A program made the position numbers and the translations under genes. From Alphaproteobacteria bacterium (GTDB lineage: Bacteria; Pseudomonadota; Alphaproteobacteria; UBA9219; RGZA01), in the NCBI GenBank assembly GCA_041917755.1, contig JAYRWY010000016.1:112866-176865 (forward strand): DNA of 64,000 nucleotides, in the 5' to 3' direction. The notes under the pieces were generated by a model that had not been told where the DNA came from, made no database searches, and worked only from the letters and a program-made list of their open reading frames with translations. Below, piece by piece: positions 1 through 34,219 of the stretch (position 1 is its first letter; the number at the start of each line of letters is the position of its first letter).

Positions 1-1618
1 GAATGATGGCGCAGGATCTGCAGGTGCAGGTTGGGTTGAAGCGGGTTCATACTTCCTGCAACTAGCGGCCGGCGGTAGTAACCGCGTATCGGGTACAGAT
101 ACCTTACCGATTATTACTGGCCCCAAATCCGAACTTATACGTCCTGAAAACGTTCAACAGGCATTCTTTAAAATGGCCGAATGGATTGTTGGAAAATATG
201 TGTCGCACATATCGGGTGGTGGCGCTGTATCCAACATGATTGGTAATACCGTTGCCGGCCGTAAATTTGTCGACTTGCTATTATTATTTATGGATCAGCT
301 AGGTGTCGTTTCTGGCTTATGGTCACCTGGAAGTGTCGCCTTCTATATTGATCTGGGGAATAGTCCGCTCGCAGAGCTGGTGGATTTGGGTCACCGGATG
401 ATCCGAACGTCGCTGGATTGCGTGGGCGCCGCCGTTGACCTTGGCGTGAATGAACCGCAACACGCCATGTATTCATCGCAGGTTGCGAGCAAGGAAAGCA
501 AAGCGTTTGGTCCAAAAGCCGGATTATTCTGGGCACAGATGGCTATTCCGGTACTATCCGCCTTTGCAAGTACATTGATGACGATGGGTGTGCTTATCGG
601 GATATTCACACCGATGTTACCGTTCATGAAGTTTGTATTGTCGGTGATGACGTGGCTGGCATTGGTTGTGGAATCCCTTGTCTGCGCGCCACTTTTGGCA
701 CTCGCTTACCTGACACCTTATGGCGAAGGTTTTGCCGGACAGAAAGTCGAGCCGAGCTATCACATCATCATCCATACCTTCTTAAGGCCGGTGATGACGA
801 TCTTTGGTCTGATTGCATCCATCTTGCTGTTTAATATCGCGGCGCATTTAGTCACCACATTCTATCAAGCGATTACATCAAGTGCGGGTGCGTTTAAAGG
901 TGGTATGTATGTCGTTGCCAAGATTGCATTTGGTAATATGTATGTGTCGATGCTGTACACCTGCTTGAACATGGCACTGAAGGTAATGGATACGTTCGCC
1001 AAGCACGCAACGCGCTGGATTGGTGGTAACAGCCATGAAGAAAATATGGGCGATGCCGCACAAACCATTCAGATGGCAGAAAAAGGTACAGCCATGTTGG
1101 GTCAACTTGCTGGTTCACTTGGCGGTGCCGCTTTGAGTGCTGGTAACACCATGGCGCATGGTAATGCACACGGTTCTGCAGGTGGCGGTGGCCGCAGTGG
1201 ACAAGCCGGCGCCAATGCACGCCAAATGACCGCACCTCAAGGACCAGCACGTTCGCCTGCTGCAGCTGCACCAGCTCCAGCACCTGCTCCGGCACCAGCG
1301 CCTGCGCCTGCTCCGGAACCGGCGGCTCCAGCTCTACCTGCGCCTTCACCTGATCCAGCGGCACCTATTGCAGCTCCGAACGTTGAACAAGGCGTGCAAG
1401 CTGCTGCTGCACAGCATGCACCGCCCGCATCTGCTGGCCCGCAAGCTGCACAACAATTCAGTCAAGCACTTAGTGGTATTAATGCGCTAGGAACCATTTC
1501 AAACCCTGCGCAAGCAGCGGCGGCTGCTAATGCTGTGACCTCACATCTAACTGCCCATCCAAATGACGTGCGTGGAGCTATTCAGGCCGGTCACCAAGCA
1601 CGCTTGAATATCCCATAA
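1..1618 (+). CDS. dotA: DotA/TraY family type IVB secretion inner-membrane protein, 5'-truncated by the window edge
   Basis: Frame is open from base 2 (NDGAGSAGAGWVEAGSYFLQL, a GWxxAGsyf motif). It continues through PLAELVDLGH, TPMLPFMKF..WL..VESLVCAPLLAL, GEGFAG and FLRPVMTIFGL to RWIGG, the DotA/TraY C-terminal membrane signature as I recall it. A Pro/Ala-rich tail follows. Confidence 0.85.
   Translation, partial: NDGAGSAGAGWVEAGSYFLQLAAGGSNRVSGTDTLPIITGPKSELIRPENVQQAFFKMAEWIVGKYVSHISGGGAVSNMIGNTVAGRKFVDLLLLFMDQLGVVSGLWSPGSVAFYIDLGNSPLAELVDLGHRMIRTSLDCVGAAVDLGVNEPQHAMYSSQVASKESKAFGPKAGLFWAQMAIPVLSAFASTLMTMGVLIGIFTPMLPFMKFVLSVMTWLALVVESLVCAPLLALAYLTPYGEGFAGQKVEPSYHIIIHTFLRPVMTIFGLIASILLFNIAAHLVTTFYQAITSSAGAFKGGMYVVAKIAFGNMYVSMLYTCLNMALKVMDTFAKHATRWIGGNSHEENMGDAAQTIQMAEKGTAMLGQLAGSLGGAALSAGNTMAHGNAHGSAGGGGRSGQAGANARQMTAPQGPARSPAAAAPAPAPAPAPAPAPAPEPAAPALPAPSPDPAAPIAAPNVEQGVQAAAAQHAPPASAGPQAAQQFSQALSGINALGTISNPAQAAAAANAVTSHLTAHPNDVRGAIQAGHQARLNIP
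1258..1375 (+). repeat. Low-complexity (Pro-Ala)n coding repeat in the DotA tail
   Basis: Translates to PAAAAPAPAPAPAPAPAPAPEPAAPALPAPSPDPAAPIAAP. Codons are degenerate, so the repeat is at protein level. Confidence 0.9.
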
Positions 1619-1675: not shown

Positions 1676-2113
1676 ATGTTTGGAACCAATTTTGACCCAT
1701 TCAATCAGCAGCCCGGCGGCCCGTTTAAAGGCCGTGGTCCGATTGCAGGCATTCCGACCGGAAATCAAAAAGAAAAATCGCAGACCGGTAAAATTCTTCG
1801 CTTTATGTTCAACCCTGAACTGGGTGAAGACCTGAAAAACATGCGTGGGCAGCATGGGCATTTTTTAAAGCTCATCTCCAACCTGTTTTTGCAAACCGGT
1901 CTTGTTGATGCATCCTATATCGGGTTTGTTGATCCAAATCAGCTGGGATTGATATCTCTTATTAAAGAAGCACGTAAAAATCTTCGCTTCACCCGCGAAG
2001 GCTTGCCGCAGGTTCTATTATTTTTTGCCTTCGTTGGCAGCTTGGCCGTTGTGGGACTATCGGTTATTTTCTTTATTCTGGCGCTGGGTACCAATCCAGG
2101 CGGGCATCGATAA
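1676..2113 (+). CDS. Hypothetical membrane protein (145 aa, C-terminal TM), possibly DotA-associated
   Basis: Same strand as dotA, 57 bp downstream. Hydrophobic C-terminal segment VLLFFAFVGSLAVVGLSVIFFILAL. Confidence 0.7.
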   Translation: MFGTNFDPFNQQPGGPFKGRGPIAGIPTGNQKEKSQTGKILRFMFNPELGEDLKNMRGQHGHFLKLISNLFLQTGLVDASYIGFVDPNQLGLISLIKEARKNLRFTREGLPQVLLFFAFVGSLAVVGLSVIFFILALGTNPGGHR

Positions 2114-2317: not shown

Positions 2318-3490
2318 ATGAACATTCATGAATACCAAGCCAAAGAACTCCTCCGCCGTTATGGCGTAAACGTGCCCCGTGGCGGCGCTGCATTCACTGT
2401 AGAAGAAGCAGAAAAGGTTGCCAAGGATTTGGGCGGTTCATTATGGGTAGTGAAATCACAAATCCATGCAGGCGGTCGCGGTAAAGCCGGCGGTGTAAAA
2501 GTTGTAAAGAGCATCGATGCTGTGAAACTTGAAGCGCAACGCATGTTGGGCATGACCCTTGTAACACACCAGACAGGCCCCAAGGGACAAAAAGTTGGCC
2601 GTATTTACATTGAAGAAGGTTGCGATATTAAGCGCGAACTTTATTTAGGTCTTCTGGTTGATCGTGCAACCAGCCGCGTAACCGTGATGGCATCCACCGA
2701 AGGCGGTATGGACATCGAAGAAGTTGCAGCAAAGCATCCAGAAAAAATCCAGAAATTCTCCATTGACCCAGCCACCGGCATGCAAGCATTCCATGCGCGC
2801 AAAGTTGCATTTGGTCTTGGACTTGAAGGCGCGCAGGTCAATAACTGCGTGAAATTCCTGCTTGGTATGTGGAAAGCATTCAACGAGCTGGATTGCGCCA
2901 TTGTTGAAATCAACCCGCTGGTTGTAACCGGTGCAGGCGATGTGATTGCCCTTGATGCAAAGGTAAACTTCGATGACAACTCGCTCTTCCGTCAAAAGGA
3001 AGTGTCGGGTATGCGCGATGAAACCGAAGAAGATCCAGCAGAATTGGAAGCAACCAAGAACGACCTGAACTATGTAAAACTCGATGGCAACATCGGCTGC
3101 ATGGTGAACGGTGCAGGCCTTGCTATGGCCACCATGGATATCGTGAAGCTGTATGGCGGCGAACCAGCCAACTTCCTCGATGTGGGCGGCGGCGCAACCA
3201 AGGAACGCGTGACCAAGGCATTCAAGATTATTCTTTCCGATAAGAACGTGAAGGGAATTTTCGTGAACATTTTCGGCGGCATTATGCGCTGCGATATTAT
3301 TGCAGATGGCATCATCGAAGCCTCGAAGGAAGTAAAGCTGAGCGTGCCATTGGTGGTGCGCCTTGAAGGTACCAACGTCGATTTGGGTAAAAAGATGCTC
3401 GCGGAAAGTGGCTTGCCGATTGTTGCCGGCGACAACCTCTCTGATGGCGCAAAGAAAATCGTCGCTGCTATTTCAAAAAAAGCTGCTTAA
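2318..3490 (+). CDS. sucC: Succinyl-CoA synthetase beta subunit
   Basis: [58 protein letters not shown]. Confidence 0.99.
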
Positions 3491-32220: not shown

Positions 32221-33206
32221 CGCTTATCTTTCAGTGAATTCGGCACATTGATGCCTTGTGCGTTGGCAAGCTGTGCCATGCGGGCAATTTGCCGTTCAAT
32301 ATAGGTATTAATCATACCAATGCGTTCTTCGCGGATAAGTGCGCGAATGGGGTCACCATTGTTATCTTCTTCGGTGAAGATGTAACGGATATATGGGCCT
32401 TGCGGGCCAAGCACCTGATGCACGGCGGCAGTGAGCGCCTGCGCTAATACGTTTTTGGCTGCGCCGCCAAGATTTTGAGCAGCAAGTTGCAATAAACCCA
32501 GCAAACTATCTTCAATCGAGCCTGCGTGAATGGTGGTGAGCACCAAGTGGCCTGTGGTAGCGGCACGTAAAATTTGTTCGGCAGCTGCAGGAGAGCGTAC
32601 CTCGCCCACCAGCAAATAGCGCGGCGTCCAACGTAAGGTGCGCTTCAATGGGGTTGCCCAGTCTTCACTGTTAGCCACCTGGATTTGATAGCAATAACCT
32701 TTATCGCCACATGGGCCTTCCAGAATATATTCAACGGGGTCTTCCACCGTCATGCCCACGCCGCCATAGCTGTTCAGGTATTCTTGCAGCAATGAAAAGC
32801 AGGTAGTGGTTTTACCGTGGCCGGTAGCACCGGAAAATACAATCAAGCCATCGCGGCGGCCAAGGTTACGCAAATAATTGGCAATATGCGGAGCATAACC
32901 CAGACCTTCTAACTTTGGGACATTGGGATTGATTTTACGCAACACCGCCCATACTTCGCCATTGGCCATGTTTTGATGGGCAAGACGAAAGCGCATGCCA
33001 TCATACGTAAAAGCAGCTTCGACATTATTGGCTTCGGCACGGAATTTTGCGGCCAACCGTTCAACGTCTTCGGCATAATCGGAATGCAGCGGTTGAATCC
33101 ATACGTTATTTTTGTCGCGTTGTGGTGTGCGATAGCGTGGCTGAGCGGGGGCATCAAGGCGTACATATAAATCCATGAATAATAAATCACGAAGCTTCTT
33201 ACTCAT
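32217..33206 (-). CDS. PilT-like secretion/pilus ATPase, copy 2
   Basis: Walker A GATGHGKTT, EDPVEY, Walker B LLVGEVR, His box TGHLVLTTIHA, C-terminal PIRALIRE. Confidence 0.88.
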   Translation of the reverse strand: MSKKLRDLLFMDLYVRLDAPAQPRYRTPQRDKNNVWIQPLHSDYAEDVERLAAKFRAEANNVEAAFTYDGMRFRLAHQNMANGEVWAVLRKINPNVPKLEGLGYAPHIANYLRNLGRRDGLIVFSGATGHGKTTTCFSLLQEYLNSYGGVGMTVEDPVEYILEGPCGDKGYCYQIQVANSEDWATPLKRTLRWTPRYLLVGEVRSPAAAEQILRAATTGHLVLTTIHAGSIEDSLLGLLQLAAQNLGGAAKNVLAQALTAAVHQVLGPQGPYIRYIFTEEDNNGDPIRALIREERIGMINTYIERQIARMAQLANAQGINVPNSLKDKR

Positions 33207-34219
33207 TTATCACCTATGCGTAAAAGTTTCGCGGATGTCTTATCAAGGTAAGTGGTAATCATACCCACTTTGTTTTCACGAATAAGGGAACGGACGGGAT
33301 CGCCCATATTGCCTGCTTCGGTCCATGCCATACGAACAGCTGGACCGGCCTCTGACATGGTTTGGTGGACCACAGCCGTTAAGCCTGCAGCAAGAATGTG
33401 GTTAGCGCCGCCGCCCATACCCTGTTCGGCAAGATGCATAAGACCCATAAGTGCTTCTTCGGCAGAACCGGCGTGCACCGTGGTTATTACCAAGTGGCCC
33501 GTGGTTGCTGCGCGCAATACCTGTTCGGCTGCTTGCGGGGTTCTGATTTCACCCACGAATATATAGTGAGGTGCCCAGCGCAGACTGCGTTTAATAGCAG
33601 GTGCCCAGCCGTCAGAGCCTTCAACTTCAACCTGAAAACAGAAGCCGCTTTCGCCGTGGCGACCTTTCATCACGTATTCCACCGGATCTTCAATGGTGAC
33701 CGCAATACCGCCATGGGCAGCCAAATAATCAATAAGCAACGAGCATGAAGTAGTGGTTTTACCGTGACCAGTAGCACCTGTAATCATAATCAAGCCATCG
33801 CGTTTTCCCAAATCACGTAGCGCCTGCACATAAGCGGGAACCATGCCCAGCTTATCCATTTTTGGAACATCGGTTTTAATCACACGAAGACACATCCAGT
33901 CTTCGCCATCGGCCATTTTTTGGCGCGACATACGCATACGCGTACCTTTGAATTGAAGAATGCTGTCTTCTTTTAAACCCTGGTTGCGCACGAAGTCGGT
34001 AATTTGACGCACTTCATCATCGAACTGGTGTGGCACTACGGCGTTGATGCGTTGCTTGCCTTTTTTCTGTCCCTGATAGATCGCCGCGCCATTGGAATCG
34101 AGGCGAATATACAAATCGCTCAGCTTGAGATCGCGAAAGAGTGATGGAGGAGACATGAACTGACCTGAAGACTGTTTGGAACCACCAGAAAAACTTTTCA
34201 TAGCTTTTAACCTTGTCAT
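33203..34219 (-). CDS. PilT-like secretion/pilus ATPase, copy 1
   Basis: GATGHGKTT, EDPVEY, IFVGEIR, TGHLVITTVHA, PVRSLIRE. Alignment with the paralog suggests the true start may be the ATG at 34156. Confidence 0.88.
   Translation of the reverse strand: MTRLKAMKSFSGGSKQSSGQFMSPPSLFRDLKLSDLYIRLDSNGAAIYQGQKKGKQRINAVVPHQFDDEVRQITDFVRNQGLKEDSILQFKGTRMRMSRQKMADGEDWMCLRVIKTDVPKMDKLGMVPAYVQALRDLGKRDGLIMITGATGHGKTTTSCSLLIDYLAAHGGIAVTIEDPVEYVMKGRHGESGFCFQVEVEGSDGWAPAIKRSLRWAPHYIFVGEIRTPQAAEQVLRAATTGHLVITTVHAGSAEEALMGLMHLAEQGMGGGANHILAAGLTAVVHQTMSEAGPAVRMAWTEAGNMGDPVRSLIRENKVGMITTYLDKTSAKLLRIGDK

Follow-up and report, generated by a model that had tools for sequence, protein, structure and literature searches.

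A chromosomal, Dot/Icm-like type IVB secretion system with two unequal DotA proteins in an alphaproteobacterial family related to Micavibrio

Type IVB secretion systems (T4BSSs) are a known class of machine, and the DotA/TraY proteins are a known family. In Legionella, a DotA pentamer lies under an IcmX pentamer in the inner membrane and forms a conduit that opens on activation (Yue et al. 2025, doi 10.1101/2025.06.23.660953), and DotA evolves fast and recombines (PMC6761968). In IncI plasmids, TraY and ExcA set entry exclusion (PMC6112013). The best-studied relaxase-less T4BSSs, those of the Legionellales, act on eukaryotes (PMC11338181), and the T4BSS of Pseudomonas putida IsoF is reported to kill bacteria on contact (PMC9519443). 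A published rule recognizes a non-conjugative T4BSS (pT4SSi) by IcmB/DotO and at least six other components in one cluster without a relaxase (bioRxiv 10.1101/852004, PMC9418006), and one sentence of Needham et al. 2022 (PMC9418006) places such relaxase-less pT4SSi in seven marine Micavibrionales genomes. Micavibrio aeruginosavorus ARL-13 is an obligate epibiotic predator whose genome paper states that evidence for a type IV system is lacking (PMC3189940). Here we describe a DotA gene at the edge of a 64,000-nucleotide (nt) stretch of alphaproteobacterial DNA (the window), together with its paralogue, the machine to which they probably belong and the distribution of that machine.

The window comes from contig C16 of an uncultured, metagenome-assembled genome (2.14 Mb, rated 100% complete, with no 16S gene in the assembly). 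Its first reading frame (2..1618, forward strand) is open and scores 130.5 bits (E 8e-38) in a profile search with the DotA_TraY model TIGR04346, whose curated cut-off is 100 bits. The window edge cuts this gene, dotA2, which starts 971 nt before it; the intact gene (C16:111895-114483) encodes 862 residues, and the whole protein reaches 223 bits. Following the domain plan of Yue et al. 2025, hydropathy divides DotA2 into a signal peptide, two transmembrane (TM) helices, an extended domain and C-terminal hydrophobic helices (Table 1). Identity among congeners is 90-91% over residues 201-480, 96-97% over residues 481-680 and about 55% in the tail (residues 681-862). An AlphaFold model of the mature protein (pLDDT 79.9) has Legionella DotA (9ngy) as its sole significant Foldseek match (E 9.9e-16, TM-score 0.56). 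Against NF033886, the equivalog model for Legionella-type DotA, the two paralogues of this genome score 167 and 199 bits, both below the cut-off of 500. Neither of the two window proteins has a Pfam match, and scans for promoters and terminators returned nothing above the level of shuffled sequence. An earlier note, made from the letters alone, had recognized a DotA/TraY signature here; with a profile match above the curated cut-off and a DotA fold match, dotA2 is confirmed as a true, intact member of the family.

Table 1. Coordinates of features at the dotA2 locus (window positions) and of the linked pilus operons (contig C17)
Feature	Coordinates	Strand	Evidence
dotA2 3′ part, residues 325-862, DotA/TraY/VirB6 family	1..1618	+	TIGR04346, AlphaFold model
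DotA2 periplasmic extended domain, second half, residues 325-480	2..469	+	Hydropathy, regional identity, dN 0.07
DotA2 C-terminal hydrophobic helices, VirB6-like core, residues 481-680	470..1069	+	Hydropathy, identity, model
DotA2 low-complexity Ala/Pro/Gly tail, residues 681-862	1070..1615	+	Sequence
orf145, single-TM protein of 145 residues, separately encoded form of the DotA N-domain (~110 residues)	1676..2113	+	Profile, alignments
sucC, flanking housekeeping gene outside the secretion system	2318..3490	+	Adjoins dotA2/orf145 only in this family
Type IVb pilus and Tad/Flp-like operons	C17:226734-238002 and 239229-247562		Synteny after dotB-icmT

The end of dotA2 lies 699 nt before sucC on the same strand, in agreement with the distance of some 700 bp first noted. 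A second DotA gene, dotA1 (970 residues, 287 bits against TIGR04346), is located 1.5 kb upstream of dotA2, outside the window, with alaS divergent in front of it and a 372-residue gene between the twins. The gene order alaS-dotA1-variable genes-dotA2-orf145-sucC is kept in three congeners and partly in a sister genus. A scan of the locus found no att-like repeat and no tRNA gene near dotA2, and the nearest integrase on the contig is about 70 kb away, at a tRNA-Ser gene, which upholds the earlier observation that mobility features are absent. By contrast, the significance that the earlier note attached to the TCA-cycle neighbourhood did not survive: dotA stands beside sucC only in this family and is placed elsewhere in others, so the neighbourhood is incidental. 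A functional link between dotA and the TCA operon was rejected, as dotA adjoins unrelated genes in other families. The upstream contig, in which further dot/icm genes might have been sought, holds dotA1, alaS and housekeeping genes and no other dot/icm gene; the machine is encoded on contig C17. In a relative (G026), a single dotA adjoins SLT-dotD-dotC-dotB. Elsewhere in the window (32490-34219; C16:145355-146760), a tandem pair of genes for PilT-like ATPases matches the DotB model weakly.

The main cluster on C17 (198-227 kb) encodes two DotI proteins, DotH, DotG, a DotF-like protein, a TraQ/DotE-like protein with two small paralogues, DotN, DotO, DotM, DotL, SLT, a DsbC-like protein, DotD, DotC, DotB and IcmT. 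Directly after dotB-icmT come a type IVb pilus operon of the R64 kind (pilN, P, Q, R and S) and then a Tad/Flp-like operon. The Walker A motifs of DotO, DotL and DotB are intact, and in GC3 the main machine genes depart from the genome mean by no more than about 1 SD. Four unnamed genes (212, 523, 296 and 674 residues), some with signal peptides, occupy the interval from dotL to the SLT gene (C17:215019-220367) and are too divergent for BLAST matches in other families. The 503/523-residue protein after dotL, for which neither NCBIfam nor BLAST gave a match, resembles TraW-like PF28212 clusters in language-model features (0.91-0.92, with low recognition), a lead towards an IcmX/TraW-like protein.

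Searches of the genome gave no match for IcmV, NikA/NikB, Sog primase, ExcA, TraX or a shufflon recombinase. For IcmS/IcmW, neither PF12608 (for which no control genome passed the cut-off) nor a BLASTP search with Piscirickettsia IcmW gave a match, and distant forms could escape both. Relaxases of the classes MOBP, MOBQ, MOBF and MOBH (PF03432, PF03389, PF08751 and PF07514), whose models were positive in control genomes, were not found in the genome. Because DotO is clustered with DotI, DotH, DotG, DotN, DotM, DotL, DotD, DotC, DotB, IcmT and a TraQ-like protein, and these four relaxase classes are absent, the machine is a pT4SSi under the published rule. The marks of an MPF-I conjugative element (relaxase/oriT, integrase/att and a patchy distribution) were not found. 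The machine is a near-complete, Dot/Icm-like system that is non-conjugative by this rule.

The source order comprises 71 species-level genomes and differs from the order of Micavibrio. DotA was found in 57 of 61 of its genomes and DotH in 60, always as a single copy; DotA passed the cut-off in 34 of 401 sampled Alphaproteobacteria genomes. Three genomes (G008, G016 and G045) keep DotH, and G008 also DotO, with no DotA match; G008 and G016 are rated 100% complete, and the missing DotA reflects either an assembly gap or loss. One genome marked as unpublished (G046) contributes a row to the tallies for the order (DotA, DotH, MOBP and N-domain) and another so marked (G092) a row to the 401-genome sample, and both are in the DotA tree and the AxA count described below; no conclusion hinges on either. 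The trees are quick LG+G4 reconstructions with SH-aLRT support only; DotO rows with fewer than 500 aligned residues and RpoB rows with fewer than 900 were left out, as were two thirds of the DotA rows of family f2 in the DotA tree. For 30 genomes from 13 families, the DotO tree and the unrooted RpoB tree have 21 of 27 splits in common (label shuffles: mean 0.3, maximum 4). The patristic correlation is 0.79, and well-supported splits disagree once, at a long branch. This sharing of splits indicates that the machine was inherited vertically. The DotO proteins of R64, Komagataeibacter, Bosea and Piscirickettsia fall outside a supported 34-row DotO clade. In the DotA tree, DotA2 groups with chromosomal DotAs of related lineages and is not nested among plasmid TraY proteins, and the plasmid DotA/TraY copies are 23-25% identical to DotA1. 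The near-universal, single-copy DotH, the congruence of the trees and the divergence from plasmid copies together make the machine a core feature rather than a mobile element. The earlier interpretation therefore stands in part: the gene is a true DotA, chromosomal, non-plasmid and, as now seen, part of a vertically inherited machine, whereas neither the TCA-cycle meaning nor the expected dot/icm genes upstream held, and the effector delivery or prey contact that it suggested is putative. A further order, which holds three genomes, G247 among them, was considered as Micavibrionales, and this identification was rejected.

The same data bear on whether the machine still moves DNA, mobilizing relaxase-bearing islands in trans or pieces of chromosome. 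Its genes resemble an IncI set, with a coupling protein, an SLT, a TrbB-like thioredoxin and a thin-pilus operon, a MOBP relaxase above cut-off occurs in 30 of the 61 genomes, M. aeruginosavorus has two MOBQ genes, and a Phaeobacter DotA with the N-terminal domain found in this clade sits in an element with a relaxase and a coupling protein. However, the source genome keeps the machine intact with none of the four relaxase classes searched; the MOBP genes are scattered and often multi-copy, in contrast to the single-copy, near-universal DotH; and the congruent trees argue that the machine itself does not spread. We therefore consider DNA transfer very unlikely.

In the order of M. aeruginosavorus, DotH was found in 234 of 240 genomes, and one family sits in the DotO clade. 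In M. aeruginosavorus ARL-13, a syntenic dot/icm cluster lies at 2.42-2.445 Mb; unlinked from it, at 201-210 kb, are three tandem DotA genes, the lengths of which match GMV_196-198, annotated merely as putative membrane proteins. Expression values for the three dotA genes and icmO, which are low to medium and rest on one library per phase, are 11.9/3.9, 4.8/1.7, 3.6/2.8 and 4.3/3.5, respectively (GEI, attack/attachment; PMC3189940 suppl. 4). In the attack (prey-seeking) phase, just 33% of genes are transcribed, and dnaA or rpsT stands at 0 (PMC3189940). At 2426357-2427959 in ARL-13, reads cover the short spacers of GMV_2424/2425 densely, next to small genes for TraQ/TraR pilin-like proteins; the coverage of intergenic85 is 18.8 in attack and 179 in attachment, in columns that are unlabelled in the source table. 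This spacer coverage hints at strong pilin expression on prey.

The two DotA proteins of the source genome are about 28% identical to each other. The DotA tree confines their duplication to this family (support 100) and the triplication to the family of Micavibrio, and DotA multiplies and diversifies in several lineages. G330 has three dotA copies in tandem (C6:298640-306110), two of which share one 1,812-codon frame that possibly encodes a double-DotA polyprotein. The twins evolve at opposite rates. Mature DotA2 is 90-97% identical among congeners, similar to SucC and AlaS, and this includes the periplasmic domain. The periplasmic domain of DotA1 is 33-48% identical, with a dN of 0.30-0.66, that is, 4-9 times faster than that of DotA2. 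The part of DotA1 that matches the C-terminal core aligns with residues 684-845 of Legionella DotA (E 4e-24). The dN/dS of dotA1 is below 1, but synonymous sites in dotA1 are near or at saturation, more so than in the flanking genes, so the ratio cannot separate positive selection from old, exchanged alleles, and the two explanations are equally likely. Among congeners, the number and the sequence of the genes lying between the twins differ too. The 372-residue gene of the source genome (C16:110561-111679; GC3 0.36) has no family match, and a homologue was found only in G003; at this site, the congeners have one or two divergent, Ala/Gly-rich genes. It is a candidate for a variable partner or substrate of DotA1.

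An alternative is that only DotA1 serves the machine, DotA2 having been recruited to another task as an envelope protein independent of it. Following the duplication, DotA2 changed along a long branch (0.96) and has since been frozen, its TIGR04346 score is lower than that of DotA1, the dotA genes are not linked to the other machine genes, and in G006, a member of this family, the only copy seen is of the DotA1 type. Against this, the dotA genes of Micavibrio are unlinked as well, and there the remaining machine is present; the single dotA of G026 adjoins machine genes; and DotA2 keeps the whole DotA fold. Re-use of DotA2 outside the machine has only a slim chance of being correct.

The gap between dotA2 and sucC contains orf145, which is conserved and matches the first 110-130 residues of DotA in two sister families. 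A profile of this N-domain shows that most lineages of the clade begin their DotA with it, as do all three Micavibrio copies and, among DotAs of some roseobacter elements, one from Phaeobacter, and gives no match in the R64, Komagataeibacter and Piscirickettsia proteins. It occurs in 737 clusters at 50% identity, and in most of the 150 listed it lies at the start of proteins of 840-1,800 residues; it is encoded apart also in family f42. Of 50 fused proteins, 47 have an AxA motif after the single TM helix of the N-domain, against a background of 26% per 24 residues, and none of six free copies has one; orf145 lacks it, and DotA1 and DotA2 have their own signal peptides. The simplest reading of these sequences is that the fused form may be a polyprotein, cut by signal peptidase into a small membrane-anchored domain and mature DotA, which in this family would be made from two genes. 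From the gene fusion, orf145 is a putative DotA-binding partner. In size and position it recalls IcmV/TraX, although none of 34 members matches the NCBIfam IcmV or TraX models and the N-domain profile misses R64 TraX. Fold searches of the N-domain in the Atlas and the PDB gave no match (TM-score at most 0.36, best Z 5.7, helical noise), nor did Atlas feature searches, which does not make it a new fold. On the Phaeobacter inhibens chromosome (L226:10001-12865), the fused N-domain DotA belongs to an element with a relaxase, MobC, a coupling protein, ArdA and a recombinase, with no other dot gene within 10 kb.

What the machine delivers, and to whom, can be approached from this gene content. The absence of a relaxase of the classes searched, the retained coupling ATPase, a predator among the relatives and the precedent of a T4BSS that kills bacteria (PMC9519443) make protein delivery into contacted bacteria the most likely function. 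We judge it somewhat better than an even chance that this is a non-conjugative protein-delivery machine aimed at contacted bacteria, with substrates and target putative. Counted against a bacterial target are that no substrate or effector was identified, that the source organism belongs to another order than Micavibrio, that IcmS/IcmW gave no match, that the Micavibrio expression values are low to medium and that half of the relatives carry MOBP somewhere. By extension from Legionella, DotA would be exported via a cleaved signal peptide and form a pentamer under an IcmX/TraW pentamer, opening into a conduit on contact, into which DotL-DotM-DotN would feed proteins. The adjoining type IVb pilus may make the contact. 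DotA2 would serve as the fixed structural subunit, and specificity would be set by the fast-changing DotA1, either interchanged with it or mixed into the pentamer. The 145-residue protein would be a membrane-anchored DotA partner that other lineages may produce 1:1 with DotA, as a pro-domain set free by signal peptidase. The likeliest target would be another bacterium held in contact, prey or host.

The same non-conjugative machine could instead deliver effectors into a eukaryotic (protist) host, as in the Legionellales. The genome is small (2.1 Mb), and DotL matches Legionella DotL over 650 aligned residues (E 2e-130) and is closer to Piscirickettsia DotL (42% identity) than to R64 TrbC (30%). 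Yet a protist host is quite unlikely, given that IcmS/IcmW gave no match, that a crude pattern found no ankyrin-motif proteins, that an ATP/ADP translocase was not found in 26 genomes (a search without a positive control), that bacteria are the prey of the only member of the clade identified as a cultured organism, and that the DotO clade is separate from Piscirickettsia. A third use would be as a contact or feeding conduit for adhesion, pore formation or import of prey contents, rather than as an effector injector. Epibiotic feeding requires a junction, no effector was found, and the multiplication and diversification of DotA would suit such a role, but the export-side DotL-DotM-DotN coupling complex is kept with its ATPase motif intact, and we give this use very little weight. 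A more specific history can be drawn, in which a conjugation machine was domesticated once, in the ancestor of several small-genome orders of Alphaproteobacteria, as an epibiotic prey-attack conduit with mixed pentamers of fixed and prey-variable DotA and with the pro-domain, cut off by signal peptidase or encoded separately as in the source genome, as an assembly factor; we regard this scenario as unlikely.

The machine is a candidate means by which these bacteria attack or contact other cells. For Micavibrio, our analysis names candidate genes for the killing and draining of prey (GMV_196-198, the dotL gene GMV_383 and the dot/icm cluster at 2.42-2.445 Mb). Vertical inheritance of a T4BSS in Micavibrio and some 290 related genomes suggests a contact-dependent way of life common to a mostly uncultured group of orders, and, next to the Legionellales, would mark a second case in which an I-type conjugation machine was domesticated long ago. 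The fixed/variable DotA pair and the split N-domain offer handles on the assembly and the specificity of the channel. In the literature searched, which does not include one relevant 2014 paper in ISME J that compares epibiotic with periplasmic predators, we found no account of a T4BSS in cultured Micavibrio, of a cleavable or split N-domain, of a fixed/variable DotA pair or of vertical inheritance of such a machine over several orders.

Among described systems, the machine shares with Legionella Dot/Icm (PDB 9ngy and 9nh0) the DotA plan (TM-score 0.56), a chromosomal, relaxase-less and split arrangement of loci, DotL/M/N, DotO, DotB, DotC/D/H/G/I and IcmT, and a fast-evolving DotA. It differs in that DotA2 falls below the equivalog cut-off (167 versus 500 bits) and has a shorter extended domain, in its two paralogues with opposite rates, in the lack of an IcmS/IcmW/IcmV match, in a short DotG (458 residues), in the linked type IVb pilus and in the extra N-terminal domain, a separate gene in the source genome. 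TIGR04346 also covers R64 TraY, and homologues of the R64 MPF-I proteins TraH, I, J, M, N, O, Q and U, TrbA, TrbC and PilN, Q, R and S are present; the pairing of a variable DotA with a variable small gene behind it is reminiscent of traY-excA. However, identity to R64 is 20-24% over a short stretch, and the source system is chromosomal and vertical. The bacteria-killing T4BSS of P. putida IsoF is a strain-level system of a free-living gammaproteobacterium. The pT4SSi of Needham et al. is of the same machine class and from a related lineage, and the DotO proteins of the Micavibrio order and the source order form one supported clade; that paper did not cover a phylogeny against the species tree, DotA paralogues, the N-domain or the source order.
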